Below the pieces are notes generated by a model, which worked only from the letters and a program-made list of their open reading frames with translations, ran no database searches and had not been told where the DNA came from. A DNA stretch of 60,268 nucleotides from an uncultured Planctomycetia bacterium (lineage in GTDB: Bacteria; Omnitrophota; Gorgyraeia; 1-14-0-20-64-10). This document shows, one piece after another, positions 4,427-40,674 of this stretch. Every line of letters starts with the position of its first letter. Position 1 is the first letter of the stretch. Made by a program: the position numbers and the translations under genes. The stretch covers positions 1 to 60,268 of the forward strand of contig CAZQXN010000011.1 of NCBI GenBank assembly GCA_964597545.1, given 5' to 3'.

Positions 4427-4498
4427 TGGGCCGACAAGGACTCGAACCTTGCTCAACGGATTAAAAGTCCGCTGCTCTGCCAGATGAGCTATCGGCCC
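4427..4498 (-). tRNA. tRNA-Lys (anticodon UUU)
   Basis: Reverse complement GGGCCGA-TA-GCTC-ATCTGGCA-GAGC-A-GCGGA-CTTTTAA-TCCGT-TGAG-CAAGG-TTCGAGT-CCTTG-TCGGCCC-A forms a canonical cloverleaf with anticodon TTT. CCA is not encoded. Confidence 0.9.
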
Positions 4499-19285: not shown

Positions 19286-19339
19286 ACAAAAATGGGGACG
19301 GTCCATAAAGGGACACACCACCTCATATGGACTGTCCCC
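19286..19339 (-). terminator. Intrinsic terminator downstream of the secretin gene (end of the T2SS-like operon)
   Basis: Reverse-strand RNA GGGGACAGUCCAUA-18 nt loop-UAUGGACCGUCCCC (13 bp plus one A.C mismatch), followed by AUUUUUGU. Confidence 0.6.
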
Positions 19340-19353
19340 AAATGGAACGTCCC
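19294..19353 (-). repeat. Roughly 60-nt GGGAC-rich repeat element, copy 1
   Basis: The reverse complement gggacgttccatttggggacagtccatatgaggtggtgtgtccctttatggaccgtcccc aligns with 58153-58211 read on the plus strand. The first 21 nt and ggtgtgtccctttatg are identical. Confidence 0.8.
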
Positions 19354-19357
19354 TAGG

Positions 19358-21415
19358 TTATTCGCCGTACTGGATGGGGATCTTAAAGGTCTTGGGTTCC
19401 TGGGTGAGGCGATCAGGAAAAGGAGGATATGGAGAAGCCTGTCGGACTGCCCGTATGGCCAGGCTGTTGAGGCGATTATTCCCGCTTTCGGCCACCTTCA
19501 CCCGTCCTTGGAGGCGGCCATCGGGCCTCAAGGTGAAGAGCAGCGCTACTGTTCCACTGACCCTGGGCGGCACCTTCTGCGCTGAGACAGCAGTTTGGAT
19601 CTTGTTGCGCAATTGAAGGAAGTAGCTGTCCATGCCTGCCGGCTTACGCTGTGCTGTGCGCATCGGCCCTGCGGGTTCAGGAGCCGCTTGTCTTGGGGGC
19701 AAAGCACGCGCACGCTCAACTCTACTTTCTGTGGCCCGCTTGGGCTGAATGTTGCTGATCGGTCGAGGCGCAATGGCTCTGGGCTTACGCGCAGCGGCGG
19801 GAGCAGGTTGCTGGACATGCGGCCGGGTCACCACCGGCAGGGTCGGTACCCGCTCAGTCGGAGTAAACTCACCCCGGCGGCCTGAAACCGTGCGGGCGGT
19901 CATAAAGACCACGGTCTCGGTCTTCTCGGTCTCCTCGTCACTGGAGCGGAAGAGGTAGCCCAAGAGCGGAATATCTCCCAAGAAAGGAATCCGCCTGTGC
20001 GCAACCGCCTCGGTATCCTGAATGAGCCCGCCCAAGATTACGGTTCCGCCGTCCTCGAGCAGAAGCACTGTCTCGGCCTCGGCGGTCTCAACGATCGGAA
20101 TCGTGTTGCCCTCGGAAGTCAACAACTCTCCGGTCTTGGAGCTGACCTTGGGAGCCACCTTCATCTGAATGAAGCCGTCCCGCGTAATGGTGGGGGTGAC
20201 AAAGAGCTCTACCCCGACATCAATGAAGCTGACCGACTCTGAGGTTACCACGGTGGTGTCTGACTGCGACTGCGAGGTGGTGACATAAGGATCCCGGGTG
20301 GCCACCAAGAACTTGGCCTCCTGGTTGTTGGCCACCAGCACCCGGGGCTCTGAAATGATCTCAGTGTCTCCAAAGGTCCGGAGGGCCTCAATGGCAAATT
20401 GATAATCCCCGGTGTTGCTCAAAGAGGCCGTGGCGATATCTAAGGCAAGGCCCCGCGTCAGATTCAACGCCCCCAAACCTTGCAGGGTGATTTTTTCGCG
20501 CGCTAAGAGATCCCAGTCAATCCCTAATTGAAATTCATCCCCCAAGGTCACCTGAAAGATCTTAGCCTCAATCAAAACCTGGGTGGTGCGCTCATCAAAG
20601 GCCTCGACTATCCGCGCAATGGCGACCTGTTTCTCAGGGTAGTCGGTCACCACTACTTGGTTGGTCCGTTCATCCACCACCATGACCCCCATGCCCTTGG
20701 TCAGCGTCTCATCCAGCAGAGGTGCCAAATCCTTGACGGCTCCATAATTGAGGCTGAAGATCTGGGTCTCCACCGGACGATCCATGCCCTCGACAAGCCC
20801 AACCATCTCACGGACAGTGTCTGCGCTGTCCATGAGGATTAGGGTGTTGGTCGACTCATCGGCGATCACCCGGCCCAAGTTGGTCTTGATCTGCGAAAGT
20901 GCCCGGCTTAAATCCGCTGCCTTGGCATACCGGGGGGTGAGAGACTTCAAAACGCGGGCGTCCTGGAAGGGTTCTCCGTGCAGAGTCTCATAATCCCTGC
21001 GGGTCATGATGGTAAGAATCTCGCCCTTGCGTTCATAGGCCAGCTCGTTGGCCGCTAAGATCACCTCCAACGCTTCCCAGGGATCAACATCCTTCACAAA
21101 GAGGGTCACCTTGCCTGAGACATTGCGCCCCGCCACAAGATTCAAGCCGGCCTGCTCAGCTAAGATCTTGAGGACCTCAACCACATCAATTCCCTGGAGC
21201 TGAAGCGTGATCGGAGCAGTATCAGAGGCCTTCTCTGCGGCCTGCGCCTGGCAAAGAGAGCCTCCCAGGCTTAAAACCAACCCCAAAACCAACACGAGAG
21301 CAACGGTGCCCTTACATTCTGGGATCCCTCGCTTCGCTCGGGATGGAATTCGGCCAGTGAACTTACGTTCGCCTGGCTCCGTAAGTCCAGGCCTCATTTC
21401 ACATCTGAAGTTCAA
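19358..21415 (-). CDS. gspD: Secretin (GspD/PilQ family) with a Pro-rich linker and a C-terminal TonB_C-like domain
   Basis: 685 aa. Signal peptide, N0-like domain (ITLQLQGIDVVEVLKILAEQAGLNLV) and secretin core (ISEPRVLVANNQEAKF...IPFLGDIPLLGYLFR). After about 90 aa of Pro/Ala/Arg-rich linker the last 91 aa match the TonB C-terminal pattern. Confidence 0.85.
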   Translation of the reverse strand: MNFRCEMRPGLTEPGERKFTGRIPSRAKRGIPECKGTVALVLVLGLVLSLGGSLCQAQAAEKASDTAPITLQLQGIDVVEVLKILAEQAGLNLVAGRNVSGKVTLFVKDVDPWEALEVILAANELAYERKGEILTIMTRRDYETLHGEPFQDARVLKSLTPRYAKAADLSRALSQIKTNLGRVIADESTNTLILMDSADTVREMVGLVEGMDRPVETQIFSLNYGAVKDLAPLLDETLTKGMGVMVVDERTNQVVVTDYPEKQVAIARIVEAFDERTTQVLIEAKIFQVTLGDEFQLGIDWDLLAREKITLQGLGALNLTRGLALDIATASLSNTGDYQFAIEALRTFGDTEIISEPRVLVANNQEAKFLVATRDPYVTTSQSQSDTTVVTSESVSFIDVGVELFVTPTITRDGFIQMKVAPKVSSKTGELLTSEGNTIPIVETAEAETVLLLEDGGTVILGGLIQDTEAVAHRRIPFLGDIPLLGYLFRSSDEETEKTETVVFMTARTVSGRRGEFTPTERVPTLPVVTRPHVQQPAPAAARKPRAIAPRPISNIQPKRATESRVERARALPPRQAAPEPAGPMRTAQRKPAGMDSYFLQLRNKIQTAVSAQKVPPRVSGTVALLFTLRPDGRLQGRVKVAESGNNRLNSLAIRAVRQASPYPPFPDRLTQEPKTFKIPIQYGE
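19361..19633 (-). other. TonB C-terminal-like domain fused to the secretin
   Basis: ...VSGTVALLFTLRPDGRLQGRVKVAESGNNRLNSLAIRAVRQASPYPPFPDRL...FKIPIQY follows the TonB_C pattern (G-V-hydrophobic strand, DG, SG, L-aliphatic-A-A, P-F-P). Confidence 0.65.
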
Positions 21416-21884
21416 AGGTCTTCTCTCCTCGCATCAGAATAACGGTTCGCTCCTGAATTTCTTTGACCTCTGCCTCGCCGACCTGCTCCCCTTCCCTCAC
21501 CCACATGGTCTGACCGGAGTCTGAATCTTCCAAAAAGGCCCGCTTGCCCCCGGCCATGATGACCCCCTTCAAAACCCAAACCCGTTCCCGCTCTACTGTT
21601 GCAGGGGCGACAGGAGCCGGGGGTAGCTCTGTCTTGAGGGGCTCAAAGAGTGTTTCTGGAAATTCCACTGTTGGCACCGCCGGCATCGGCTTTGAGATCG
21701 GCTCCAAATCCGGCAAGAGAGGTCGAATCGGCTGCTGCAACTGCACCCCCCACTGAACCAAATCCCCGGAAACCAATACCAGCAAGACCGGCAACAGCCA
21801 AATTAGAATCCGCTGGACCGTCAGCAGGCGCCGCTGTTCCCGATCTAGGCGCAGGAGAGACTCTGTCGACGCCGGAACGCTCAT
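21399..21884 (-). CDS. Single-pass inner-membrane protein, GspC HR-domain / PilP-like secretin-coupling component
   Basis: 161 aa. One TM helix (ILIWLLPVLLVLV), a Pro-rich spacer, then WVLKGVIMAGGKRAFLEDSDSGQTMWVREGEQVGEAEVKEIQERTVILM, which is typical of PilP/GspC beta-domains. Translationally coupled to its neighbours. Confidence 0.55.
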   Translation of the reverse strand: MSVPASTESLLRLDREQRRLLTVQRILIWLLPVLLVLVSGDLVQWGVQLQQPIRPLLPDLEPISKPMPAVPTVEFPETLFEPLKTELPPAPVAPATVERERVWVLKGVIMAGGKRAFLEDSDSGQTMWVREGEQVGEAEVKEIQERTVILMRGEKTFELQM

Positions 21885-22417
21885 TCCGAGAAAACCCCCT
21901 TGGCAACAGAGATCCGAACCACACCCTGGATCCTGTCCTCCTCTGCCGGGGTTAACCGCACGCTGTCCAGATGAACCCCTGGAACGGCCTCAGGCAGCCG
22001 CTGGAGAAACTGTCCGATGGCATTCAGTGGGCCCACCACCTTGGCATCCAGCCGAACCCGTTTTGAGCGGTTCCTGCGCCCTAGGGCCTCAAGGGGCTTA
22101 AGCTCATCGATCGAAAGGCCCGAAGCTTCAGCAACCTCCTGAACGCCCTGCAGGGTGACCCAGTTTAAATCAACGGAGCCTGAGCGCAGCGCACCCAGCA
22201 GCTCACCCCTTTTGGAGTTGACCTGCTCGCCAACCTCAATCCAACCGTGCAGCCGGGAGAGTTTCCCCTTCGCCAACTGAAGCTGTCCATCCTGCTGCTG
22301 CCAGAATTGGATGCCGGCCTCAGCCAGTCGAACACCGCCGACCACCAAGCCGAACCACAGGACCGCAATGCCAACGTTCAGCCAAGGGGACCTGCCCTGC
22401 GCAGCAGCACCCTGCAT
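21881..22417 (-). CDS. GspM / PilO-like inner-membrane assembly protein
   Basis: 178 aa. An N-terminal TM helix followed by coiled-coil and ferredoxin-like regions. Assigned by its position in the operon. Sequence evidence is weak. Confidence 0.5.
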   Translation of the reverse strand: MQGAAAQGRSPWLNVGIAVLWFGLVVGGVRLAEAGIQFWQQQDGQLQLAKGKLSRLHGWIEVGEQVNSKRGELLGALRSGSVDLNWVTLQGVQEVAEASGLSIDELKPLEALGRRNRSKRVRLDAKVVGPLNAIGQFLQRLPEAVPGVHLDSVRLTPAEEDRIQGVVRISVAKGVFSE

Positions 22418-23853
22418 CAGGGAGCGATACCGCTGGGCTGAAGCTGCAGCTCAAATTCCACGATTTCTCCCTCGTCCTTTTCCCTGGTTTTGGCGGAACG
22501 CAGGAAGACCCTGTCCCAAACCGCCTTTTCTCTGAGGGTAGCTGAAAATCGGGTCACATGACGCAAATCCGGCGCCAGACCCCGAAGGGTCAAGCCCTTG
22601 TTCGCTTCCAACCCAAAGAACTGCAGGGTCATCTCGGGCTCAAGGTAACGCACCGCCTCTGTCAAAAGGGACAACTCAAGAGCATAGGCTTGGCGGGCAG
22701 CGGCAAGGGCGCGGATAGAATCAAAGGACCACTGGATGCGGTTGACCCGGGGCGTAAGAGATTGAATCTGGTATTGCACCTGCTTGAGCTGCCACCCCGT
22801 CCCGCCAATCCGAGCGCCCGCCCAAACACAAGCCAAGGCTGCCCAAATCGCAACCAACAGAACAACCCTCCCAACTCGATGAGTAAGGGCTTGATGCTTT
22901 TGGTGGAGGCGGGTTTCAACCGGCAGCAGATCCAATTCCAGCAAGCGCGGTGCCGCCACCACACCCAAGAGCTCGGTAAAGGAGATCTCAGGGGCAAACT
23001 CTTTGACGGTGACGGCAAGGGATTCTCGGAAGGGGGAGTTCTCCAGGGGGTCCACTCGACGGACAGGCAGCTCCAGCAAATGCTCCAACTGTTCAACGGT
23101 TGCCCCCCTGCCCTCGAGCCAGCCGCTCACTGTGGCATGCGCCACCTGCGGTCCGATCCGTTCTCGATGATAGGCCTGGATGGTTTCTTGGAGTCGCCCG
23201 GCCATGTCGGTGACGCTGCCCGCAAGCCCAGACACATGGCGCATGTAAATGAGGGAACCTTGATCCAATACGCCAATATCCATTCCCTCGGAGGTCAGCT
23301 CTGCAAAAAGCCAAGCCCCGGCAGGCAGCTTCTCTCCTCCCGGGCTGCAGGCCTTGTGCCACTGGCCAATTGCTTCACTGGAAACAGCGATCTCGGTGAG
23401 GTCCAATCCGGCTTGAGCGCAAATCCGCACCAGCCGCTCGACAGTCGGCCGATGGGCGGCTGCCACCAAAACGCGAGTGGCCTCTCCTGCGGGTCCCACC
23501 ACCTTGACTGAAGTGACGCATTCATCCACCGGATAGGGCAGCACACCCTCCAGTTGATAGAAGGCCATCCCTTGAAGCTCATCCAGCTTGTCGGACGGAA
23601 GGGTGAGATAGCGCGTGAGAATCTCCCGCTTAGAAAGCAGGCCCACGACCTCCCGCGAGGATTCCGGAAGATCCCTTGCCAACTCCTTAAGGGCGGAGGC
23701 CAGCGCCACTTCGCTGGCATCCTTCACCTGGCGGGACTTCATCCCCAGCAGTTTAGGGATCCCTTTGCCGGTCCATCGGGCCTGAACCAACTGCACTTGG
23801 GTTTCTGTAACGCTGACCGCGGTCACAATCTGGGCCGTTTGACTACCCTTCAT
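22417..23853 (-). CDS. GspL-like protein (PilM-type actin-like cytoplasmic domain fused to a PilN-like TM/periplasmic domain)
   Basis: 478 aa. The N-terminal roughly 300 aa are cytoplasmic, followed by one TM helix (VVLLVAIWAALACVWAGA) and a periplasmic tail. It lies between gspK and the gspM-like gene. Confidence 0.6.
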   Translation of the reverse strand: MKGSQTAQIVTAVSVTETQVQLVQARWTGKGIPKLLGMKSRQVKDASEVALASALKELARDLPESSREVVGLLSKREILTRYLTLPSDKLDELQGMAFYQLEGVLPYPVDECVTSVKVVGPAGEATRVLVAAAHRPTVERLVRICAQAGLDLTEIAVSSEAIGQWHKACSPGGEKLPAGAWLFAELTSEGMDIGVLDQGSLIYMRHVSGLAGSVTDMAGRLQETIQAYHRERIGPQVAHATVSGWLEGRGATVEQLEHLLELPVRRVDPLENSPFRESLAVTVKEFAPEISFTELLGVVAAPRLLELDLLPVETRLHQKHQALTHRVGRVVLLVAIWAALACVWAGARIGGTGWQLKQVQYQIQSLTPRVNRIQWSFDSIRALAAARQAYALELSLLTEAVRYLEPEMTLQFFGLEANKGLTLRGLAPDLRHVTRFSATLREKAVWDRVFLRSAKTREKDEGEIVEFELQLQPSGIAP

Positions 23854-24718
23854 GCCATCCTCCTATGGTCGCTTGGGCTTGGGCCGACTCCCGGTTCAAT
23901 ACTGCCCTGACCCTTTGGCGAAGCGCGTGCCGCTTACTTACCCCCTCTGCCTCAATTTGAAACCAAGAAGAAGCCACTCCAATCACGCCGGATTGGATCT
24001 CGTCTGAGAGCACAGCTCTGTCCCCTGCAGGCAGTATAACTCCAGCTGCCTCCATATCGATCAGAATTGTGCCTGTTTCCTCAAATATCCTATCATCTTC
24101 GGTTCCCAAAACACCATCACTGCCTTTTCGATACGCCCCCACCAAATCCACCCCAGTTGCAGAGATCCCAAGCGCACTTAACACCTCAGGGTACACGGTA
24201 TTGAGATTCATGGGGCCCACTCCATGCACAGTCACCAGGGGCGCAAGCGTCTCTAAGTCATCGGCAGAAAGACCAAAAACCTTCAGTTCCGCCAAATGCG
24301 CAATCGGTTTTGGCGTATCGGGATCGGTGATCCGCGCGATGAGATCGGCTGCAATCTGCGCGTCAAAACCAGGCAATGCTTGAAGGAGATCGAGATTGGC
24401 TGCATTGAGCGGAATGTGGGCTTGAAGATCAGAGATCTCGTACTGGAAGGAACCTGAGGCCAAGGAGATGGGCTCCTCAGGGGTTTCCCGCCACCAGGGT
24501 TCAGCCGGAGCGTCAAAACCAGCGGCTGTATCCAAAAGCATGCGGGCAGCAGCCGCCTGGACCGCCGTGTGAGCCAAATGCCAAGCTTGGCGTGACTCTC
24601 GAAGCCGGCCCACCCATTTGACTTCCAAAGCAACACGGGTGGCCTGCGTGATGCCGAGAATGGTCAGTACCGCCGCGCCCCACAAGCTGAGGATCAGCAC
24701 AGAGCCCCTCTGCCGCAT
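23843..24718 (-). CDS. gspK: Minor pseudopilin GspK-like
   Basis: 291 aa. MRQRGSVLILSLWGAAVLTILG is the GspK-type N-terminus (no Glu+5). Helix-hairpin-helix-like repeats follow. Confidence 0.65.
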   Translation of the reverse strand: MRQRGSVLILSLWGAAVLTILGITQATRVALEVKWVGRLRESRQAWHLAHTAVQAAAARMLLDTAAGFDAPAEPWWRETPEEPISLASGSFQYEISDLQAHIPLNAANLDLLQALPGFDAQIAADLIARITDPDTPKPIAHLAELKVFGLSADDLETLAPLVTVHGVGPMNLNTVYPEVLSALGISATGVDLVGAYRKGSDGVLGTEDDRIFEETGTILIDMEAAGVILPAGDRAVLSDEIQSGVIGVASSWFQIEAEGVSKRHALRQRVRAVLNRESAQAQATIGGWHEG

Positions 24719-24719
24719 C

Positions 24720-25334
24720 TTACGCCTCCTCCGGCGGAATCAAAACACCGTGTGGAAGCCAGAAATCCCGCGTCACGTCATGCGCCCTTCCCTCGGCATC
24801 CTCGGCGGCAAGCCGCACTCGAAGGAACTTAGGTAACGCATCGTCCGGCTGCCATGTATCGAGATACAGCAGCTCGCCCGGTGCCTCGCCCTGATAGGCG
24901 TATGTCATAGAAAAACGGCTGACTCGACCTACCAGCCTTTGGGTCACCACCTCCTCCTCCTCTGTCTCAGGAAAAGCCAACCCTTCCCGAATGAGGACTG
25001 AATCTTCCCCCACACCCTGGAGCGCATAGCGCACCTGCCGCAGCCCAGTCGCCCCCTCGCTCTTTAAGAAAACCATCTGCCCGGCTTCGCCCACAAAGGG
25101 TGAATCGGCCAGGACGACGGCGTTGCGCAGCTCCTCTGCCATCCGGTTAAGTCCGCGCTCCACCACAAAAAAGATCTGGAGCCGCCCATCCGCCCGCTGC
25201 CAGGCAGTCAGCCCCCTCCCCAATACCAGCACCGCTGCAACGCCGATCACAACAGCCAGAGAGGTCGCGACAACCAATTCCAATAAGGTAAATCCCTTGC
25301 AGCCAGCTCCAAGGCGCCTCGGCCGCCGGGTCAT
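24720..25334 (-). CDS. Minor pseudopilin, GspJ-like (prepilin-type N-terminus)
   Basis: 204 aa. KGFTLLELVVATSLAVVIGV carries a prepilin cleavage/methylation motif. Confidence 0.65.
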   Translation of the reverse strand: MTRRPRRLGAGCKGFTLLELVVATSLAVVIGVAAVLVLGRGLTAWQRADGRLQIFFVVERGLNRMAEELRNAVVLADSPFVGEAGQMVFLKSEGATGLRQVRYALQGVGEDSVLIREGLAFPETEEEEVVTQRLVGRVSRFSMTYAYQGEAPGELLYLDTWQPDDALPKFLRVRLAAEDAEGRAHDVTRDFWLPHGVLIPPEEA

Positions 25335-25723
25335 TGCGTCCCCGCTTCCGGCGAAAGCCCCGTGGCAATCCGAACAGAACGTTCATGCCCCCGAAATCCC
25401 CAAAAAACCTGGGTGGTAATCTTTTGAAGGGTTTGCTCTGCCTCTATGGGCTCAGGCGCTGAAACCTCCCAGCGGAAGATCCCCTCTTGGCCTTCAGTTT
25501 CAACGGGGAGTTGCTGCGTATGGCGCGCGAGTGCCGCGATTGTCTCGCGATCTGCAAGGGCAGAGGCAGCTAAGGTATGGTCTAAGAGGCGTGTGACATT
25601 CAGATGGCGGCTGAAGACTGCAGCCCCTAGGATGAGGGCGGTTACGAGGATAGCGAATGCTACTAAAACTTCGATGAGGGTGAACCCGAGTGGGGCCCTG
25701 CGCCCCATCGGATTCAAAATCAT
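25331..25723 (-). CDS. Minor pseudopilin, GspI/GspH-like (prepilin-type N-terminus)
   Basis: 130 aa. LGFTLIEVLVAFAILV carries the prepilin motif. Confidence 0.65.
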   Translation of the reverse strand: MILNPMGRRAPLGFTLIEVLVAFAILVTALILGAAVFSRHLNVTRLLDHTLAASALADRETIAALARHTQQLPVETEGQEGIFRWEVSAPEPIEAEQTLQKITTQVFWGFRGHERSVRIATGLSPEAGTQ

Positions 25724-26169
25724 GGAGAGGCGCCCGAGCCCCCTTCCCAGTTGCCGATGTCGTCGCTGGTCCCCTCAGTACCATCGGGCCCAACCGAGAA
25801 GAGGTCGTAATCGCTTGGGTTCTGCGTTCCCGGAGTTTGATAATGATAAGGACGCTTCCAGGGATCTAGGGGGGTACTTTTAAGGTACGGACCCCGCCAG
25901 TTTTCTACATCCGCCGGGAGGGCTCGCAGGGCCTCCAACCCCTGCTCTTGGGTGGGGTAAGCGCCGGTATCTACCTCAAAGAGATCCAGCGCCAAGGGGA
26001 TATTGGCCTGCACATCTGCCGTGGCCCGAGCAATCCGAGCCTGCTGAGTCCGCCCGGCAAGCCGAGGGACCACCATCGCCACTAAGACGCCCAGGATGGT
26101 GACCACGATCAGAAGTTCTACCAGGGTAAATCCTCTTTCGTCATTGCGAGCGAAGCACAGCCATCCCAT
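25720..26169 (-). CDS. gspG: Major pseudopilin GspG
   Basis: 149 aa. ERGFTLVELLIVVTILGVLVAMVVPRLAG, then DLFEVDTGAYPTQEQGLEAL and GPYL...DPWKRPYHY, typical of GspG. Confidence 0.85.
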   Translation of the reverse strand: MGWLCFARNDERGFTLVELLIVVTILGVLVAMVVPRLAGRTQQARIARATADVQANIPLALDLFEVDTGAYPTQEQGLEALRALPADVENWRGPYLKSTPLDPWKRPYHYQTPGTQNPSDYDLFSVGPDGTEGTSDDIGNWEGGSGASP

Positions 26170-26177
26170 TCTGCGTA

Positions 26178-27389
26178 TTATCCTACATTAAAATTTAGTT
26201 GAAAGATAGGCAGTAGCATCGAGAAGACAATGCCGCCCACCACCAGGCCTACCAGCAGGATCATCACCGGTTCAATCAAGCTACTCATGGTTTTGACTGA
26301 TCGATCCACTCCCTGGTGGTACCGCTCTCCTGCTTGGGCAAAGGCCCGGGCCAAATCCCCCTGGGCCTCTCCCATGGCGACCATGGTCAGCAAGAAAGCC
26401 TCTCCAACTCCGCCTCGCCTTAAGCTCGCTGAGAGGGCCATCCCCTCCATCACATCCCGCTCACTGCGCTTCATCTGTGCCCTGAGCCGGCTTAAACCGA
26501 CTGTGGCGCCACTCAAGCGAAGGGCCTCCGGAAGGGGCAGCCCATGGGCCAGCAAAAGCCCGAGTGTCGAGGTGAGCCGAGCCATCTCCCCCTGTTCTGC
26601 CAAGCGGCCAAAGAGAGGAATATGGCGCAAGAGGTTCATTCCCCAGGCCCCAATCGGAATCTTCAGCCAGCCGGATCTTACTGCCAACCATCCGGCAATC
26701 AGCAGCAGCAATCCCAGGCCCGCCGCCCACACCAACCCCTGGCCGGATTGAATCATCATATTCGTCATCCAGGGCAAGGGCTGGCCGGTCTCTTCAAAGA
26801 GAAGCCCAAGCTTGGGTACAACAAACCAAATGAGCGCACTGACGGTAGCCAGCCCCACCAACATGACAAAGGCCGGATAAACCAAAGCCCCGCGCACTTT
26901 GGAGACAAGCTCGGACTCAGCCTCTACCTGCCGGGTCAGGGCCTCTAAGACCTGCTCCAACGCCCCGCCGGCCTCTCCGGCCTGAATCAAGGCCACAGCG
27001 ACTGGCGGGAAGGAAGCGCTTACCTGCGTCATCCGCATGGCATCTGCCAGATTGGCCCCACCGGTAACTTGGGCCTCCAGAAAGGCGGCCACCCGCCCCA
27101 CAGGACGTCCGGATTCCTGCTCTGCCAACAGGTGCAGTGCCTGGGTCAGGCTTAAACCGGCCTGCAAACCCTGACCAATGGTGCGGGCCCACAAGGCAAG
27201 ATCGGCTTGGCCGAGCGCTCGACGCCCAAGTGCCCCGGCGGGTGCCCCCTTTTGCTCCAAGGGAACAACCTCCAAGGGAAACAAACCCATTTGCTTAAGG
27301 TGCTGAACAGCAGCAGTCCGATCCATCGCCTCCACAACCCCTGAGGCGTCGGTTCGCTTATCCTGCTTGGCTCGGTAGGTAAATTGCAT
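26178..27389 (-). CDS. gspF: T2SS inner-membrane platform protein GspF
   Basis: 403 aa. Duplicated T2SSF-type domains and three TM segments. Sits between gspE and gspG. Confidence 0.88.
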   Translation of the reverse strand: MQFTYRAKQDKRTDASGVVEAMDRTAAVQHLKQMGLFPLEVVPLEQKGAPAGALGRRALGQADLALWARTIGQGLQAGLSLTQALHLLAEQESGRPVGRVAAFLEAQVTGGANLADAMRMTQVSASFPPVAVALIQAGEAGGALEQVLEALTRQVEAESELVSKVRGALVYPAFVMLVGLATVSALIWFVVPKLGLLFEETGQPLPWMTNMMIQSGQGLVWAAGLGLLLLIAGWLAVRSGWLKIPIGAWGMNLLRHIPLFGRLAEQGEMARLTSTLGLLLAHGLPLPEALRLSGATVGLSRLRAQMKRSERDVMEGMALSASLRRGGVGEAFLLTMVAMGEAQGDLARAFAQAGERYHQGVDRSVKTMSSLIEPVMILLVGLVVGGIVFSMLLPIFQLNFNVG

Positions 27390-27392
27390 ACG

Positions 27393-27429
27393 GGGTCAGA
27401 CCCCTTTGGGTCAAAAGGGGTCTGACCCC
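27393..27429. repeat. Two copies of the GGGGTCWGACCCC palindrome (gspE-gspF intergenic)
   Basis: ggggtcagacccc (27393-27405) and ggggtctgacccc (27417-27429). Confidence 0.9.
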
Positions 27430-27438
27430 TTTGAGGGG

Positions 27439-29076: not shown

Positions 29077-29198
29077 ATGCCTCTATGATAAGTATTCCAC
29101 ATTGCGGCATGCTCTGCACCAAAAATTTTCCTGGAAACGCAAGCCCTGTCCCTGTACACCCCGGGGGTGTATAGTCGGCAGCTTGGGCCGGCTTGAGA

Positions 29199-33470: not shown

Positions 33471-33511
33471 CTCATTGTCTCCCTAGAGGTTAAGCTTAAG
33501 CTCCTGGACCG

Positions 33512-33550
33512 AAAATAAAAAACCCATGGTTTTTTCCGCAAAACCATGGG
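33512..33550 (-). terminator. Intrinsic terminator inside the 5' leader of the 1423-aa S8 gene (riboswitch expression platform)
   Basis: Reverse strand CCCAUGGUUUU-GCGG-AAAAACCAUGGG followed by UUUUUUAUUUU. It lies about 40 nt upstream of the start codon and downstream of the aptamer. Confidence 0.75.
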
Positions 33551-33573
33551 CTTCCTGCATTCTTGTCTGATCT

Positions 33574-33645
33574 GGCAACCCGGCTGGCCCTATGGGCCCC
33601 GTGGCTTTGCGGCCCCCGGTTTCCCGGGGTGTGCCTTTTACAGGT
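33574..33645 (-). promoter_or_regulatory. c-di-GMP-I (GEMM-I) riboswitch aptamer, leader of the 1423-aa S8 gene
   Basis: Reverse strand AAAAGGCACACC-CCGG-GAAA-CCGG-GGGCCGCAAAGCC-ACGGGGCCCAUAGGGCC-AGCCGGGUUGCC. Compare V. cholerae Vc2: GGGCAAACC-AUUC-GAAA-GAGU-GGGACGCAAAGCC-UCCGG...GCGGGGUUACC. Confidence 0.75.
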
Positions 33646-33665
33646 ATATCAATTGCTACACACTA

Positions 33666-33695
33666 AGTATGGCTGATCCTCATCAAAAAAGTCAA
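33666..33695 (-). promoter_or_regulatory. Candidate sigma70 promoter of the 1423-aa S8 gene
   Basis: Reverse strand TTGACT (33695-33690), 18 nt, CATACT (33671-33666). It lies about 20 nt upstream of the aptamer. Confidence 0.45.
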
Positions 33696-33735
33696 GGGGA
33701 CCGTAACTTTTTTGGGTTCCGGTAGTTAGGATCAC

Positions 33736-36700
33736 TCATCGCCACGCCCGGATCTTGAAGCGCCGCTTGGGGGAGCGGTTCCCCTTGGAGTCAACGGCTT
33801 CGAGAAAACCGCTGTAGACGCCCCGCTTTGGATACCGGTGCCAGGTCCCGTGCTGGGCAGTGCTTCGGCTTGTACCGTCTCCGAAGTCAATGTGATATCG
33901 GACAGAATCGCCATCCGGATCGATCGCCCGGAATCGAAAGAGCGCCCAGCGGCCAAAGCTGCGCACCCGGAAATGTTTGATCTCCGGAGGTCGATTTAGG
34001 GTAGGGCGGCGGAAGACGGTTACACGCGCTTTTTGTGAAGCGGAATACTCACCATCGCTCACTGAAAAAGTTACGGTGTGCTCCCCAATATCTCCTCTTC
34101 CGGGTTTGAGAATCACCAAAGCACGCCCTTCCCCAAAATCACGCAAGCGCATGAAACGGGGTAGATCTACTGCCGAGAAGGTCAGGGGGTCGCCATCCGG
34201 GTCGGAGGCCGAGATCACCTGGAAGTAGACCTGCCCTACCTGAATCTCTCGATTTGCAATGGGATTTAAGACCGGGGGGCGGTTAACAGGGTTGGTAACG
34301 GTAATGGCGAGCTTCTTTCGGTCGGCCAGACCGGCATCATCGAAGGCGTAGAAGAGAACTGTGTATTCTCCGGCCTGTCCAGGGTCTGGGGTCCAGGAGA
34401 AGCGTCCGGTTGGGCGATCAAAAGAAGCGCCCTCCGGAAGATCTCCTGCCCACAGATAGACGGGGTCTCCATCCGGGTCGGTGGCGGTGACGGTAAACTC
34501 CAGGGGTTCTCCCTCTTTGACCTCCTTGTCGCCGATGGGGTCTAAGACCGGGGGGCGGTTGACGTTCACCACGGTGATGTTGATGGTTTCTGAGTCGGAG
34601 AGGGGAGGAGTGATGCCACGAGGTGGCATGATGATGTCGTCGGGGGTACGGGGTGGAACAAGACCCGGGTTCGGCAGAGGCATGGGGTCCGGCACAGGGA
34701 TGGGGATTAAGTTAATTTCGGTGGCGGTAAATGTGACTCTGTAGAGGCCAGCTTGTGTGAAGTCGGGGGTCCAGGAGAAGAGGCCGGTTCTGGAAAAGGT
34801 GGCTCCGGCAGGAAGACCTTTTGCCCCCAGGAAGATGAGGCTGTCTGGATCGCTGGCTGTAACAGTGAAAGAGAGACGCTCTCCCTCCTTGACCTCCTTG
34901 TCGCCGATGGGATCTAAGACCGGGGGGCGGTTGACGTTATGGACGGTGATGTTGATGGTTTCTGAGGTGGAGAGGGGAGGGGTGATATCGCGAGGGGGCG
35001 CGTCGATTACCTCAGGGATGTCAGCCAGAATGGTGCCAGGACTCGGCAGAGGAGGAAAGGGATCCGGTACAGGGAGAAAAATCAGGCCGAGCTCGTTGGC
35101 AGTAAAGGTGACTTCGTAGGCGTCGGCCTGGGAGAAGTCCGGGGTCCAGTAGAAGCGGCCGCGGACGCCCATATATCCTTTATGCACGTCATAGACAGGA
35201 GTCCAATCGAAGGTAGCTCCTTCAGGAAGCTCCATGTTAATAAATTCGAGAAGGTCTCCATCCGGGTCGGTGGCGGTGACGGTAAACTCCAGGGGTTCTC
35301 CCTCCTTGACCTCCTTGTCGCCGATGGGATCTAAGACCGGGGGGCGGTTGACGTTATGGACGGTGATGTTGATGGTTTCTGAGGTGGAGAGGGGAGGGGT
35401 GATATCGTGAGAGGGAATGATGATGGATTCCCGCTCAAGGGGAAGCGGACCCGGCAAGGGGAATTCGGGGTCGATGGGATCAATGGGGAACAGGCCAAAT
35501 TCGGTGGCGTGGAAGGTGACTTTGTAGGCGTCGGCTTGGGTGAAGTCCGGGGTCCAGGAGAAGCGTCCGGTGGGGCGATCGAAAGAAGCGCCCTCCGGAA
35601 GATTTCCTGCCCGAAAGAAGATGGGGTCTTGATCCGGATCGGTGGCGGTGACGGTGAATTCCAGGGGCTCTCCTTCTTTAACCTCCTTGTCGCCGATGGG
35701 GTCTAAGACCGGGGGGCGGTTGACGTTATGGACGGTGATGGTGATGGTTTCTGAGTCGGGGAGGGGAAGAATGATAATGATAGGTTCCCGCTCGGGGGGA
35801 ATCGGACCCGGCAAGGGGAATTCGGGGTCGATGGGATCGATCGGGCTAAGATCGCTGGCGAAGAAGGTGACTTCGTAGGCGTCGGCTTGGGTGAAGTCGG
35901 GGGTCCAAGAGAAGAGGCCGGTTGGACGATCGAAAGAAGCGCCCTCCGGAAGATCTCCTATCCACAGATAGATGGGGTCTTGATCCGGATCACTGGCGGT
36001 GACGGTAAACTCCAGGGGTTCGCCCTCTTTGATCTCCTTGTCGCCGATGGGGTCAAGGATGGGGCGGCGGTTGACGTTGTGGACGGTGATGTTGATGGTT
36101 TCTGAGTTGACCAACTCGCCATCTGTTACTTCAAAATGGACACCATCGTAAAACCCTGATTGTTCATAGGTCGGTATCCAAGTGAAAGCGCGCGTATTCG
36201 GATCGAAATTGGCCCCTTCAGGCAGATTGCCGGCCGAGAAAATCAATTCATCCCCGTCAAGGTCTATAGCAGTCACCGTGAAAGCAAGGCTCTCTCCCTC
36301 GGGGACCGTCTTGTCGCCAATTGGACCCAACACCGGCCGTCTATTGGCAGGAACAGAGGGCGGAGCAAAAGCGTAGAAACCGGTCCGCTGGGGATCGTGG
36401 CGGAACATCGGCCACTCCATGCTGTCTTCTCTGTAGCTCTTTGGAAATTCCAGGACGCTGACATGTGTCACTCCCCATTCAGCGTTAAAGTGAGAGGTAT
36501 ATCGGAGGGTGACAAGATCCACCAACCCGTTGCCATCCAAGTCGGTAATGACCGTCTGACCTCCTTCGGGACCAACGATCTCCCTGGGTAACTTGATTGG
36601 GAATCCTTCTACAAGCGTTCCATCATGATGCCAGGCCTGCAGAAACGCCATGCCTCTATCCTCGGGGGGGATGTAGCTCTGGTTAGGCGCCGAAGACCCC

Positions 36701-39700
36701 AAGATCACTTCTTGATCTCCATCCGCATCTATATCTCCAACGACTACGCTGGTCTTCCCCGAACTGGGGAGCCGGATTAAACCGTGATAAGGGACAGGCC
36801 ATCCCGAAACAGGCGTTCCATCGTGATGCCAAGCGCCAACCGTTCCCGGTGAGTCCGGGAATTGGTCAAGGGTTGCTGCGAGGACTTCCAAGTCCCCGTC
36901 TCCGTCCAGATCAGCCGGCACAACCGCCTGGCCGATGAAGGCAGCTTTCTGCCCAGCAGGAGGAGGGATAAAGGTCATCTCCGAACCATTTTCCCGATAG
37001 AGATGGATTCCGGGCCCGGTGGAACGGCCGCCGGTCGTCATGATCTCTGAACGACCGTCGCCGTCTACATCTGCCATTGCCATCGGGGCTCCCCGGGAAA
37101 TATAGGAAACCTCAACAGGCCAACCGCTGTGAACCGACCCATCCGGCTCGAGGACAGTGATTCTCGAGTCGTTGCCCCCAAGCTCACTGAGGAACGCGAC
37201 CTCACCCAATCCATCTTTGTCGATGTCTCCCACCGCCGGATGGGAAGAGTAATAATCTAAATGATCGTCCAACACCGGCCAGCCGGGAAGCGGATCCCCT
37301 TGCCAGTCGTAGGCGCCGGCGAACTCCTGACTGGTCACCACAATTTCCAGCTGGCCATCCTGGTCGAGATCAGACAGGGAGGCGAAGGCCAGCCCCATCT
37401 CTGGATGAGCTATTGGAAAACCGGGCAGGAGAGTCCCATTGAGACGATAAGCATAGACCTTCGATTTCCCATAGCTGTCGGGGCCCGTGACAATGATCTC
37501 TTTGAGGCCGTCCTGATCAATGTCTCCCGCTGCCGCTGAGTTGAGTCCATTTCCTGAGGAGGGGGTTGGATTCACAGGCCAGCCAGGTAACATTTGTCCG
37601 GTCGAATCGAGGACAGCAAGCTTTCCGGGGTTCTCCCCGGGAAAGCTTACTCCGATCAAAACAATCTCTTTCGTTCCATTATTATCCAAGTCGTCGACAA
37701 GCTGCGGACGGAGAGCATTGACCCCCTCAATCCGTGACACCCACTTCAGGTATCGGGTGACGACGAGAAGCTCAAAGGAATGGTTCAGGGTGTACCCCGC
37801 GTTCGTCTCAACGTTCAGATTAAAGGGGATGGAGTCGACGCTGTCAGGGATATCCTCCAAGACCTGGATAGAAAAGGGATTCTCCTCGTTCGTTGTCGCA
37901 TCCGACCAACCCAAATCCCCTAGAGAAGAAAAGCTCTCCTTAAGGATAACGTAGGGACTGGAACTGGTCAGGGTTGCTTTGATGCCCTGAGCGGGGATGC
38001 CGCGGTTGGCCAAAGAAAAATGGACTGCCACCGTCGCCCCTGCCTGAAGAGGGTTATCCGGTTCAATCTGAGTGACTCTTAGAACAGGATGGGGCGTTGC
38101 GGTCAACGCCTGGTAGGCATTCACCCTGCCGCCTCCCAAAAAGCCCTCGAAGCCGGGGTTGGTTTCATCGATGTTATCCGCCGTGGAGGCAAGCGTCCCG
38201 GCAATCTTCCCATTCGAAGCGGTTGAATCGTTGCCAATCAGAAGAGCGGCCAAGCCGGCCAGGTGGGGACAGGCCATGGAGGTACCGTTAAGCAGCCGAT
38301 ACCCCGAGGGGTCCCCCAAACCGCCCGAAGGGGGAACGGTTGAAAGGATGCCAACACCAGGAGCAGCCACATCGACCCACGACCCATAGCTGGAGAAGGA
38401 GGCCTTTTGATCTTGAGAATCGGTAGCGGCAACCGACATCATTCTCTGATAACCGGCTGGATAATGGACGCTGGAAGAATTGGAATTCCCCGCGGAGGCA
38501 ACCAGGAAGACTCCTTGGGCGTAAGCGTCTGCGATGGCTCCATTGAGTGTTTCGGAAAAACCGCCACCGCCCCAACTGTTGGAGATGACATCTGCCCCCT
38601 GATCAACCGCATAACGGATCGAGGCAACCGCTCCTGCCAACCCACCATATCCCGTCGAGCTTAAGAACTTTACCGCCATGATCTTGCAATCCCAAGCCGC
38701 TCCTGCGACGCCTGTGCTGTTGTTGGTCGCTGCCGCCGCGATACCGGCGCAGTGGGTGCCGTGGCCGTAATCATCAAACGGATCTCCATCGTAGTTGTAA
38801 AAATCATAGCCATAGACATCGTCCACATAGCCGTTGCCGTCGTCGTCGATGCCGTTACCGGGGGTTTCACCGGAATTGGCCCACATATTGGCAGCCAGAT
38901 CCTCATGACCGTAATGCACACCTGTATCCACGATGGCAATCACCACATCGCTGGAGCCGGTGGTGATGTCCCAGGCTCGTTCTGCTTGAACTTTCGTGTG
39001 CGCCCATTGTTCACGGTAACGGGCGTCGTTGGGTACGAGAAAAGCACGAATGACGTGGTCGGGCTCCGCATATTCTACTGCAGCGCTCGCTTCGTAAGCT
39101 GCCACTACGGAAGGAACGCCGTCCGAAGCATCGAATTCAAGTAGATACGTCTGATCCAAGGCAACAGGAGCGACGCCCCCCGGTGCGCGTTGCTGGCGGC
39201 GTTCCAGGCGGGCAATCAGCTCCTCTTGGGCTTGGATCTGTTGATCTATTTTGACTCTTTCCGCTTCGATTTTGGCCTGGTACTCCCGGTGCTCTTTGGA
39301 ATCTTTGTCCTTCCACCAATACCAGCGGGAATGGGTCGTTGAACCCAGTCGGGCGCGCTTCTGTTTGAGGGCTTCCAAACGCTCTTGGGGGGTGAGATGT
39401 TTGGGGAAAAGATCCTGAACCGAGGTGACGCCGAAACGCTGGTTGAGGGGTTCGAGGTCTGCCAGGGCAGCACCCGTCTTGAGCTTGACGATGATCCGGC
39501 CGGGGGTGTAGTCCGGCTCGGCTTCCTGGGTTGGGTCCGCAGGGTGATCCGCATCCAAGTGGTAAGGGGGGCTCTCCGCGGGAATCTGAGTTGACTCTGG
39601 TTCATCTAAGACCACGCCGGAAGCGGGAATCTGGGCCATCAGAAAGGCAAGGATAAAGGCGGAAAAGATGCCGAGTGGACCAATTCTAAGCATTTTTTTC

Positions 39701-39702
39701 AT
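33736..39702 (-). CDS. 1988-aa secreted multidomain subtilisin (S8): propeptide, S8 catalytic domain, FG-GAP/VCBS repeats, seven Ig-like (He_PIG / cadherin-like) repeats with Pro-rich linkers, and a conserved C-terminal module
   Basis: Signal peptide MKKMLRIGPLGIFSAFILAFLMAQIPASG. Triad contexts AIVDTGVHYGHEDL, GHGTHCAGIAAA and GTSMACPHLAGLAALL. FG-GAP-type motifs GDIDQDGLKEI, SDLDQDGQLEI, GDIDKDGLGEV and ADVDGDGRSEI. Seven repeats of NRPPVLDPIGDKEVKEGEPLEFTVTATDPDGD...FSWTPDFTQA..Y.VTF. Confidence 0.88.
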   Translation of the reverse strand: MKKMLRIGPLGIFSAFILAFLMAQIPASGVVLDEPESTQIPAESPPYHLDADHPADPTQEAEPDYTPGRIIVKLKTGAALADLEPLNQRFGVTSVQDLFPKHLTPQERLEALKQKRARLGSTTHSRWYWWKDKDSKEHREYQAKIEAERVKIDQQIQAQEELIARLERRQQRAPGGVAPVALDQTYLLEFDASDGVPSVVAAYEASAAVEYAEPDHVIRAFLVPNDARYREQWAHTKVQAERAWDITTGSSDVVIAIVDTGVHYGHEDLAANMWANSGETPGNGIDDDGNGYVDDVYGYDFYNYDGDPFDDYGHGTHCAGIAAAATNNSTGVAGAAWDCKIMAVKFLSSTGYGGLAGAVASIRYAVDQGADVISNSWGGGGFSETLNGAIADAYAQGVFLVASAGNSNSSSVHYPAGYQRMMSVAATDSQDQKASFSSYGSWVDVAAPGVGILSTVPPSGGLGDPSGYRLLNGTSMACPHLAGLAALLIGNDSTASNGKIAGTLASTADNIDETNPGFEGFLGGGRVNAYQALTATPHPVLRVTQIEPDNPLQAGATVAVHFSLANRGIPAQGIKATLTSSSPYVILKESFSSLGDLGWSDATTNEENPFSIQVLEDIPDSVDSIPFNLNVETNAGYTLNHSFELLVVTRYLKWVSRIEGVNALRPQLVDDLDNNGTKEIVLIGVSFPGENPGKLAVLDSTGQMLPGWPVNPTPSSGNGLNSAAAGDIDQDGLKEIIVTGPDSYGKSKVYAYRLNGTLLPGFPIAHPEMGLAFASLSDLDQDGQLEIVVTSQEFAGAYDWQGDPLPGWPVLDDHLDYYSSHPAVGDIDKDGLGEVAFLSELGGNDSRITVLEPDGSVHSGWPVEVSYISRGAPMAMADVDGDGRSEIMTTGGRSTGPGIHLYRENGSEMTFIPPPAGQKAAFIGQAVVPADLDGDGDLEVLAATLDQFPDSPGTVGAWHHDGTPVSGWPVPYHGLIRLPSSGKTSVVVGDIDADGDQEVILGSSAPNQSYIPPEDRGMAFLQAWHHDGTLVEGFPIKLPREIVGPEGGQTVITDLDGNGLVDLVTLRYTSHFNAEWGVTHVSVLEFPKSYREDSMEWPMFRHDPQRTGFYAFAPPSVPANRRPVLGPIGDKTVPEGESLAFTVTAIDLDGDELIFSAGNLPEGANFDPNTRAFTWIPTYEQSGFYDGVHFEVTDGELVNSETINITVHNVNRRPILDPIGDKEIKEGEPLEFTVTASDPDQDPIYLWIGDLPEGASFDRPTGLFSWTPDFTQADAYEVTFFASDLSPIDPIDPEFPLPGPIPPEREPIIIILPLPDSETITITVHNVNRPPVLDPIGDKEVKEGEPLEFTVTATDPDQDPIFFRAGNLPEGASFDRPTGRFSWTPDFTQADAYKVTFHATEFGLFPIDPIDPEFPLPGPLPLERESIIIPSHDITPPLSTSETINITVHNVNRPPVLDPIGDKEVKEGEPLEFTVTATDPDGDLLEFINMELPEGATFDWTPVYDVHKGYMGVRGRFYWTPDFSQADAYEVTFTANELGLIFLPVPDPFPPLPSPGTILADIPEVIDAPPRDITPPLSTSETINITVHNVNRPPVLDPIGDKEVKEGERLSFTVTASDPDSLIFLGAKGLPAGATFSRTGLFSWTPDFTQAGLYRVTFTATEINLIPIPVPDPMPLPNPGLVPPRTPDDIIMPPRGITPPLSDSETINITVVNVNRPPVLDPIGDKEVKEGEPLEFTVTATDPDGDPVYLWAGDLPEGASFDRPTGRFSWTPDPGQAGEYTVLFYAFDDAGLADRKKLAITVTNPVNRPPVLNPIANREIQVGQVYFQVISASDPDGDPLTFSAVDLPRFMRLRDFGEGRALVILKPGRGDIGEHTVTFSVSDGEYSASQKARVTVFRRPTLNRPPEIKHFRVRSFGRWALFRFRAIDPDGDSVRYHIDFGDGTSRSTAQHGTWHRYPKRGVYSGFLEAVDSKGNRSPKRRFKIRAWR
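34881..34990. repeat. 110-nt perfect direct repeat, copy 1 (inside the Ig-like array)
   Basis: ctccctccttgacctccttgtcgccgatgggatctaagaccggggggcggttgacgttatggacggtgatgttgatggtttctgaggtggagaggggaggggtgatatcg is identical to 35298-35407. Confidence 0.9.
35298..35407. repeat. 110-nt perfect direct repeat, copy 2
   Basis: Identical to 34881-34990, offset by 417 nt (in frame). Confidence 0.9.
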
Positions 39703-39750
39703 CTAAGCGTAACCCCCTGCTACACTCTGTCAATCGCTCAAAGATCTGGT

Positions 39751-39788
39751 GAAATAAAAAATGCCCGGCTGCCCTTTGGCAGCCCGGC
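39751..39788 (-). terminator. Intrinsic terminator inside the 5' leader of the 1988-aa S8 gene; its 5' arm overlaps the aptamer 3' strand
   Basis: Reverse strand GCCGGGCUGCC-AAAG-GGCAGCCGGGC (one internal mismatch or bulge) followed by AUUUUUUAUUUC. Confidence 0.75.
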
Positions 39789-39860
39789 GGTCTCTAAGAT
39801 CACTGGATCCGTGGCGTTGCGTCCCGCCCTTGCAGGCGGTTTGCCTTTATCGGGGTACCG
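39778..39860 (-). promoter_or_regulatory. c-di-GMP-I (GEMM-I) riboswitch aptamer, leader of the 1988-aa S8 gene
   Basis: Reverse strand AUAAAGGCAAACC-GCCU-GCAA-GGGC-GGGACGCAACGCC-ACGGAUCC...GCCGGGCUGCC. The GGCAAACC / GNRA-capped hairpin / GGGACGCAA-GCC core matches the Vc2-type consensus almost position for position. Confidence 0.8.
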
Positions 39861-39874
39861 AATCTCTTATTATA

Positions 39875-39903
39875 AGAATACACGGTACGCTCAAGCATGT
39901 CAA
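39875..39903 (-). promoter_or_regulatory. Sigma70-type promoter of the 1988-aa S8 gene
   Basis: Reverse strand TTGACA (39903-39898), 17 nt, TATTCT (39880-39875). Confidence 0.6.
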
Positions 39904-39991
39904 GACCGCACGCTTAAAACTGCGTTACTACTAACCGTTCCTTGGTAGTTTCCAAGTCGTAGCGCACAAGAACTGCGGGCGTTAGGCAACC

Positions 39992-40672: not shown

Positions 40673-40674
40673 CC

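Follow-up and report, generated by a model that had tools for sequence, protein, structure and literature searches.

Can a single second messenger choose between two secreted proteases, and perhaps also reach the machine whose genes stand beside them? This question is raised by a 60,268-nucleotide (nt) stretch of DNA from an uncultured, Omnitrophota-like bacterium (contig CAZQXN010000011.1 of assembly GCA_964597545.1, positions 1 to 60,268 of the forward strand; the whole stretch is called the window below). On its minus strand, between 39903 and 19358, two genes for giant proteases of the S8 (subtilase) family, each behind a cyclic di-GMP (c-di-GMP) class I riboswitch leader, are followed by an operon resembling those of type II secretion systems (T2SSs). 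Every gene listed for this interval in a preliminary description of the DNA was recovered from the open reading frames (ORFs), and the anatomy given there, two c-di-GMP-I (GEMM-I) leaders, two S8 giants and a T2SS-like operon, was confirmed by Rfam, Pfam and NCBIfam.

Omnitrophota are uncultured, often ultra-small bacteria that are thought to live attached to other cells or to prey on them. The explanation of the locus that we favour as a whole, and to which we give about even chances, combines a conserved T2SS, a variable slot before gspE, riboswitches of opposite sign and a promoter of gspE's own. The slot would differ among genomes and hold, in this one, two paralogous, Sec-dependent S8 proteases with adhesion-type repeats, which the adjacent T2SS would most likely export across the outer membrane. 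Each protease gene would be served by its own sigma-70-like promoter and by a c-di-GMP-I riboswitch that acts through transcription termination.

Two aptamers with a canonical binding core

The two leaders consist of the following elements, in the order of transcription.

39875-39903, minus strand: promoter-like P1, TTGACA-17-TATTCT, serving leader 1 and the 1988-aa (amino-acid) protease gene, with 10 of 12 matches and the sole such site in 39000-40700
39774-39854, minus strand: c-di-GMP-I (GEMM-I) aptamer 1 (Rfam 59.2 bits, E 1.9e-11)
39755-39789, minus strand: intrinsic terminator of leader 1, GCCGGGCUGCC-AAAG-GGCAGCCGGGC then AUUUUUUAUUU
33666-33695, minus strand: promoter-like P2, TTGACT-18-CATACT, serving leader 2 and the 1423-amino-acid (aa) protease gene
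33570-33644, minus strand: c-di-GMP-I (GEMM-I) aptamer 2 (Rfam 67.7 bits, E 7e-14)
33510-33556, minus strand: intrinsic terminator of leader 2, CCCAUGGUUUU-GCGGAA-AAAACCAUGGG and a U-tract

Both aptamers match the covariance models of the GEMM-I clan, which describe a P1/P2/P3 fold, above the gathering score and far above chance level. A custom covariance model, whose training set included both sequences, gives 76.7 bits for aptamer 1 and 80.2 bits for aptamer 2. The best Rfam family for both is RF03167 (c-di-GMP-I-GGC), at or above its gathering score of 59; within the clan (CL00126, which includes RF01051), clan competition suppressed lower-scoring overlapping matches, and RF01051 scores were not displayed. 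The GEMM-I identity originally assigned is thus upheld at the level of the c-di-GMP-I clan, with RF03167 rather than RF01051 as the top family.

The family label raises the possibility that the aptamers are true c-di-GMP-I-GGC variants sensing a ligand other than c-di-GMP, as their top rank in RF03167 would suggest. The consensus of that family, GACGCGAAgCc, departs from the canonical GEMM-I core at a single position, where a G follows immediately on the GC that closes P2. Contact positions G20, A47 and C92 of the Vc2 aptamer were carried over to the window by our own equation from Vc2 structures. In the cmscan alignments the G20 and C92 equivalents are G and C in both aptamers, the former an unpaired G before the GC of P2 and the latter in the junction GC before the 3′ strand of P1. 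The A47 equivalent is A in both (GC-A-AAGCC and GC-A-ACGCC), not the G of the RF03167 consensus. In a scan of metagenomes for the same aptamer subtype that permitted A or G at this position, all 82 matches carry A. Among 18 sampled metagenome loci (from L090-L169), RF03167 is nevertheless the best-scoring family for 21 of 24 GEMM-I hits. Since A-bearing aptamers still score best against it, the 'GGC' label appears to reflect overall similarity to a sharp, narrow model and not identity of the binding core. 'GGC', a name attributed to Weinberg et al. 2017, presumably denotes G at the A47 equivalent; no definition of it was found in three papers that use the name.

By these alignments both aptamers have a canonical binding core and would be expected to bind c-di-GMP, which leaves recognition of a different ligand very improbable. 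The c-AMP-GMP riboswitch (GEMM-Ib), in which A reportedly replaces G at position 20, was considered and ruled out, as the G20 equivalent is G in both. The case illustrates an annotation pitfall: 'variant' riboswitch labels in environmental genomes need checking at the contact nucleotides.

Two metagenome contigs carry three GEMM-I aptamers each: L096 at 1226-1300, 1386-1460 and 10185-10258, two of them in tandem on one strand, and L127 at 4628-4707, 5082-5160 and 5779-5861.

Leaders of predicted opposite sign

A promoter had been proposed before each leader, and P1 and P2 are indeed sigma-70-like by their hexamers and spacing. Both aptamers are also followed directly by a terminator, in one case with an arm that overlaps the aptamer and in the other with a potential antiterminator.

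In leader 1 the 5′ arm of the terminator is made up of the P3 3′ strand, the junction and the P1 3′ strand of the aptamer. The minimum free energy (MFE) fold of the unliganded leader forms the terminator and disrupts P3/P1. Because the 5′ arm sits within the aptamer and the MFE fold makes the terminator, leader 1 appears to have the architecture of an ON switch. The bound aptamer would sequester the 5′ arm, and the 1988-aa protein, rich in immunoglobulin-like (Ig) and cadherin repeats, would be made at high c-di-GMP.

Leader 2 is built differently. Its aptamer and terminator do not overlap and are able to form together. The 5′ arm and loop of the terminator, UGGUUUUGCGG, are complementary at 11 of 11 positions to the aptamer core CCGCAAAGCCA, including the A47 equivalent, and at transcript lengths of 126-132 nt this 11-bp antiterminator is the MFE structure, 5.5 kcal/mol better than the aptamer-like fold. 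The 11/11 complement exceeds those of 76 other loci with this aptamer subtype (maximum 9) and of upstream controls (maximum 7); of the six other loci with a complementary run of at least 8, five have U-tracts. Leader 2 is thus probably an OFF switch that works through an antiterminator: without ligand the aptamer core would pair with the 5′ arm, and with ligand the terminator would form. Low c-di-GMP would then favour production of the 1423-aa protein, together with whatever transcription continues into gspE. With moderate confidence, the two leaders are predicted to be opposite in sign, one with an ON and one with a probable OFF architecture, and are probably not equivalent gates.

Two paralogous S8 proteases

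The two giants are encoded at the following positions (domains by Pfam and NCBIfam).

33736-39702, minus strand: S8/Ig-repeat gene 1, 1988 aa
29199-33470, minus strand: S8/PKD gene 2, 1423 aa

The 1988-aa protein consists of a signal peptide, a fervidolysin-type prodomain, the S8 domain, FG-GAP, He_PIG/Big_9/cadherin repeats and PKD. Its shorter counterpart has a signal peptide, prodomain, S8, FG-GAP, UnbV_ASPIC and two PKD domains; the dockerin reported for it at the outset is present as a match of 22.8 bits, marginally under the Pfam cutoff of 22.9. The Asp-His-Ser triad expected of a subtilase is intact in both (DTG, HGTH and GTSMA motifs, at residues 259, 314 and 473 of the 1988-aa protein). 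The N-termini are signal-peptide-like, in line with the Sec signal peptides first noted. The C-termini are PKD domains with a basic tail, and a search of both for a C-terminal sorting signal of the PEP-CTERM or GlyGly-CTERM type found none.

By sequence the two proteins are paralogs, with 39% identity over the first 627 residues. The last approximately 25 codons of the two genes are near-identical in DNA (29199-29270 and 33736-33810, minus strand; ...SPKRRFKIR...), pointing to a recent duplication, or to gene conversion, at their 3′ PKD ends. The Ig-repeat region of the 1988-aa gene contains a tandem duplication of 351 nt (1.9 copies, 85% match) at 35420-36107. Across 34001-36000 the GC skew is +0.25, against mostly negative values in the rest of the window.

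The solved structure nearest to the S8 domain of the 1423-aa protein is deseasin MCP-01 (3vv3, E 6e-52). Deseasin MCP-01 and fervidolysin-type subtilases share the S8 domain, the fervidolysin-type prodomain and the C-terminal PKD, but the proteins of the window are far larger and carry FG-GAP/UnbV_ASPIC domains and Ig/cadherin arrays. Around the nearest S8 homologs, P0003 and P0005, no T2SS neighbours were found within about 10 kb on each side (about 4.6 kb downstream of P0005). At the P0005 locus, an RF01051 GEMM-I aptamer precedes a 173-aa ORF, which in turn precedes the S8 gene.

A T2SS-like operon

The secretion operon begins 122 nt after the 1423-aa gene.

29077-29198, minus strand: intergenic gap between the 1423-aa gene and gspE, 122 nt, with no intrinsic terminator
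27439-29076, minus strand: gspE, GspE-type ATPase
26178-27389, minus strand: gspF, platform protein
25720-26169, minus strand: gspG, major pseudopilin (TIGR01710, 138 bits, above the equivalog cutoff of 88.85)
25331-25723, minus strand: GspI-like minor pseudopilin (weak match; prepilin-type N-terminus)
24720-25334, minus strand: GspJ-like minor pseudopilin (weak match; prepilin-type N-terminus)
23843-24718, minus strand: GspK-like minor pseudopilin (E 1.5e-17, below cutoff; prepilin-type N-terminus)
22417-23853, minus strand: PilM/PilN-type GspL-like fusion (weak PilM_2/PilN/T2SSL-like matches)
21881-22417, minus strand: GspM-like protein (T2SSM_b, E 0.0015)
21399-21884, minus strand: GspC/PilP-like protein (GspC_delta, E 0.0015)
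19358-21415, minus strand: secretin (STN/N0, two Secretin_N, Secretin, C-terminal TonB_C/TonB_2)
about 19290-19353, minus strand: operon-end intrinsic terminator, a long hairpin then AUUUUUGU (z-score -2.65)

GspE, GspF, GspG and GspD occur together in this one locus; the E, F and D matches are strong and under their equivalog cutoffs. An ortholog of a minor pseudopilin in the related contig L006 gives a weak T2SSJ match. From gspE to the secretin the gaps between genes are 49, 8, -4, -4, 1, -11, -1, -4 and -17 nt, so the translational coupling proposed for these genes is borne out, as is the terminator at the operon end. GspH was not detected in the window (Pfam/NCBIfam). The domain scan covered 43 ORFs of the window, that is, every long gene-like one, leaving aside those under about 150 aa outside the locus. 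In agreement with the earlier account, it revealed no prepilin peptidase (GspO/PilD), which may be encoded elsewhere in the genome, and no GGDEF, EAL, HD-GYP or PilZ domain.

The operon resembles that of a classical Gsp T2SS in its coupled gspE, F, G, I/J/K-like, L-like, M-like and C-like genes and secretin. It differs in lacking GspH and the prepilin peptidase from the window, in its PilM/PilN-type fusion in place of GspL and in the sub-equivalog scores of most components. For the secretin the top-scoring model is that of PilQ, and a TonB_C/TonB_2 tail follows at residues ~596-685. This tail, named earlier as part of the architecture, is found on many of the top 120 secretin hits, and TonB_C-tailed secretins are a widespread Omnitrophota family and not a peculiarity of the locus. 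Several such homologs from Omnitrophota are annotated merely as 'TonB family protein', and a literature search on secretin, TonB and Omnitrophota returned no description of a secretin-TonB_C fusion.

The slot before gspE in related genomes

Related contigs of metagenome-assembled genomes (MAGs) were compared by a GspE-anchored genome scan and by tblastn mapping. The gspE-to-secretin order is the same in L006 and L008-L016. Upstream of the slot, nadE and an OmpR-type regulator are found in L010, L011, L012 and L016, with the regulator between nadE and the cargo/T2SS slot. The window has a protein of this kind at the corresponding place.

39992-40672, minus strand: OmpR-type winged-helix regulator, 226 aa, with no recognisable receiver domain

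By position this protein is a candidate regulator of the locus.

Six contigs have S8/FG-GAP giants of like architecture beside the orthologous T2SS operon. They stand directly before gspE in L011, L013 and L016 (gaps of 32-58 nt), after the secretin in L010 and L012, and after gspE in L023. As S8 giants lie beside the operon in all six, a cargo link is supported, and the recurrence of this linkage at different positions argues for a functional tie between giants and machine. By sequence and position, cargo is what the S8 giants most likely are. The slot also holds other genes: HTH_17 and PIN genes in L008 (860-1551), AbiEii and HTH genes in L016 (2100-3334) and a Fic/DOC gene in L012 (8440-9747). 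The stretch from the regulator to gspE looks like an integration hotspot for variable genes. The proposal that the giants are T2SS cargo is hence backed by the six contigs and tempered by the unrelated genes that fill the slot in other relatives.

Conservation of the whole riboswitch/S8/T2SS arrangement in relatives, suggested earlier as a check, was not found. Nine related loci have no GEMM-I aptamer at the Rfam gathering score, with the leader of the 1263-aa gene of L006 lying beyond the sequence covered. In L011 the gap from regulator to S8 gene is just 58 nt, and a permissive scan of the S8 leader of L012 gave chance-level matches only. With the custom covariance model, 85 related ATPase loci (1.4 Mb) yielded a single further GEMM-I, in L022, from the Omnitrophota MAG OFTM210; it lies at 4593-4681 (plus strand), about 200 nt after the gspE homolog and before two signal-peptide proteins. 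In metagenomes, GEMM-I aptamers of the same subtype precede diverse secreted proteins, of which 3 of 57 are S8 peptidases; one of these is a 1205-aa protein 38-40% identical to those of the window. The distribution indicates that c-di-GMP riboswitch control of S8 exoproteases is recurrent and that its pairing with this T2SS is lineage-specific.

Promoter or read-through at gspE

The sole structure in the 122-nt gap before gspE is a palindrome without a U-tract, as first described. With no terminator in the gap, transcripts of the 1423-aa gene could run on into gspE. The approximately 85 nt proximal to gspE are conserved with L006, though the genes upstream are unrelated. An extended -10-like motif, TGnTAnACT, is shared by the window (TGGAATACT), L006, L011, L013 and L016 at 25-35 nt before gspE; in its place L010 and L012 have TTGACA-18-CACACT. 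A sigma-54 promoter (TGGTGC-N5-ATGC) was also considered and rejected, since its GG is not conserved in L006.

The gspE operon is most likely transcribed mainly from its own conserved promoter, and given this motif the machine would not rely on transcription that continues from a riboswitch-controlled gene. Under OFF logic in leader 2, any such transcripts would be added at low, not high, c-di-GMP. The suggestion that the machine itself falls under c-di-GMP control by read-through thus keeps its terminator-free gap, against a conserved promoter motif of gspE's own.

A candidate c-di-GMP-binding domain in GspE

A candidate connection to the messenger, overlooked in the preliminary description, is an MshEN-type domain in GspE (residues 10-150; Pfam MshEN; NF053729, 'c-di-GMP_motif, MshE-related', 47.5 bits where the cutoff is 38). 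Secretion ATPases of the MshEN type are well-established receptors for c-di-GMP (Wang et al. 2016, PMC5013675), in which two tandem 24-residue motifs, RLGxx(L/V/I)(L/V/I)xxG(L/V/I)(L/V/I)xxxxLxxxLxxQ, are joined by a 5-residue linker (PMC5013675). Motif I of the GspE in the window, KIGKLLIEAGVITEKQLEDALERQ, fits a relaxed form of the published motif, and motif II, PICQTLARMGVASEEKLLPVLAEQ, has Cys for Gly40 and follows a 7-residue linker. Among clade orthologs this Cys is conserved, and the Arg9 position is Lys, or Gln in some. The MshEN-type N-terminal subdomain is wholly missing from the GspE orthologs of L008, L014, L015, L020, L021 and L025.

The likeness to MshE and PA14_29490-type ATPases lies in a GspE/PilB-family ATPase with an N-terminal MshEN, in motif I and in the NCBIfam model, and the difference in Lys for Arg9, the clade-conserved Cys for Gly40 and the longer linker. 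The N-terminus of GspE is a candidate c-di-GMP-binding domain for which binding is plausible, and if the machine senses c-di-GMP at all, this domain is the likelier route.

Weighing the explanations

A number of observations weigh against the explanation that we favour. The cargo status of the giants is read from their adjacency to the operon, and their closest homologs elsewhere (~35% identity) do not lie beside a T2SS in the ~10-kb flanks examined. In L006, with a GspE 95% and a secretin 88% identical to those of the window, the slot is taken by an unrelated TIG protein of 1263 aa. With toxin-antitoxin, Fic and TIG genes also collected there, the adjacency could reflect an insertion hotspot. 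Aptamer 1 is barely at the RF03167 gathering score and has several non-canonical pairs, and its P3 is not recovered by RNAfold. For leader 2, the full-length MFE fold has the terminator regardless of ligand (-62.5 against -55.7 kcal/mol), so that the OFF assignment depends on kinetic control. No c-di-GMP synthase or phosphodiesterase genes were found among the scanned ORFs of the window, and the MshEN deviations (Arg9 to Lys, Gly40 to Cys, a linker of 7 residues versus 5) make binding uncertain.

Part of this evidence suits an account in which the adjacency is incidental: the site would be a hotspot for variable or acquired genes, the S8 giants would be exported otherwise or stay cell-associated, and the riboswitches would be independent of the T2SS. 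Among relatives the slot can be empty or hold toxin-antitoxin modules, Fic or a TIG protein, the S8 homologs nearest to the giants but found elsewhere have no T2SS beside them, and in metagenomes this GEMM-I subtype stands before many unrelated secreted proteins, including S8 peptidases with no visible T2SS. What such an account leaves aside is the linkage itself, with S8 giants at three positions beside the orthologous operon in six contigs, which suggests that it is kept through rearrangements. In L011, L013 and L016 just 32-58 nt separate the giant's gene from gspE, which implies that the two are co-transcribed, and T2SS-like loci by giant genes are a reported Omnitrophota theme. Incidental adjacency therefore seems fairly unlikely. 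The opposite extreme, a single co-evolved module in which both riboswitches are equivalent ON gates and read-through puts cargo and the whole T2SS under c-di-GMP, draws on the lack of a terminator between the 1423-aa gene and gspE, on the tight packing of genes on one strand with the sole strong terminator at the operon end, and on an MshEN domain in GspE that suits the c-di-GMP theme. It is harder to reconcile with leader 2, whose terminator is clear of the aptamer and whose 11-bp antiterminator drawn from the aptamer core points to OFF logic, with the clade-wide promoter motif of gspE, with the lack of riboswitches in the nine most closely related loci and in 84 of the 85 ATPase loci searched, and with the different cargo of a relative whose GspE is 95% identical. 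We regard it as quite improbable.

A bolder extension of the favoured explanation makes c-di-GMP a cargo selector: the opposite-sign switches would swap the S8 paralogs, with the Ig/cadherin-rich protein made at high c-di-GMP and the dockerin/PKD protein at low, and the variant MshEN with its conserved Cys would tune GspE. This extension is, in our judgement, unlikely.

Relation to described systems

The locus had been presented as unlike any described system. This is true only in part: T2SS-like loci beside giant genes and opposite-sign c-di-GMP riboswitches have both been described. In Clostridioides difficile, opposite-sign c-di-GMP riboswitches govern the protease ZmpI, the adhesins that are its substrates and a type IV pilus operon (PMC6366702). 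The OFF switch Cd1 (flgB) and the class I switch on zmpI are like those of the window in aptamer fold, binding core and intrinsic-terminator platform, and in regulating secreted or surface proteins, a protease among them. In contrast, both switches of the window belong to class I, are separated by 6 kb within a single string of genes and stand before two paralogous S8 proteases; the host is an Omnitrophota-like diderm, and the signs given here are predictions.

In Omnitrophota, a conserved T2SS-like locus adjoins giant genes for adhesion or degradation, some with N-terminal S8 domains, and pilZ is nearby (10.1101/2023.11.21.568195). The secretion/pilus flanks of Omnitrophota giant genes have since been confirmed (10.64898/2026.06.07.730766), and riboswitches are mentioned in neither report. 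The loci of West-Roberts et al. 2023 share with the window the phylum, a gspD/E/F locus beside very large secreted proteins and, in pilZ, a hint of c-di-GMP. Their giants reach tens of thousands of residues with many transmembrane segments, and their locus includes rcpC and a rotamase gene, whereas the window has proteins of 1.4-2 thousand aa with Sec signals, a compact gspE-to-D operon and riboswitches. Judged from these comparisons, every element of the locus is of a known kind, and the locus adds a new instance by combining them in an Omnitrophota genome.

Genomic setting

The locus is flanked by housekeeping genes (lpx genes, bamA, dnaB, ssb, rpsB, tsf, frr and two glnA). Homologs of its secretin and GspE come from Candidatus Omnitrophota MAGs and from MAGs automatically labelled Planctomycetia. 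By gene content, the window is taken as core chromosome of an uncultured Omnitrophota-like (PVC) bacterium.

Away from the locus, the DnaB helicase gene (48812-51400, minus strand) contains an intein with a LAGLIDADG homing-endonuclease domain. A 1503-aa protein (4569-9080, minus strand) combines two methyltransferase domains with a response-regulator receiver domain, an unusual architecture. A tRNA gene lies at 4427-4498 (minus strand, 67.5 bits), with an anticodon loop read as UUU (Lys).

Implications

For a phylum of uncultured cells, the locus offers a concrete, testable case: two genes for secreted protease/adhesins, beside the conserved secretion operon of the phylum, appear to be under the control of a known second messenger, which probably acts on them in opposite directions. 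The same messenger may also be sensed by the operon's own ATPase. Should c-di-GMP act as a cargo selector, unlikely as we hold this to be, the locus would work on two levels to switch a host- or prey-associated Omnitrophota cell between attaching and digesting.

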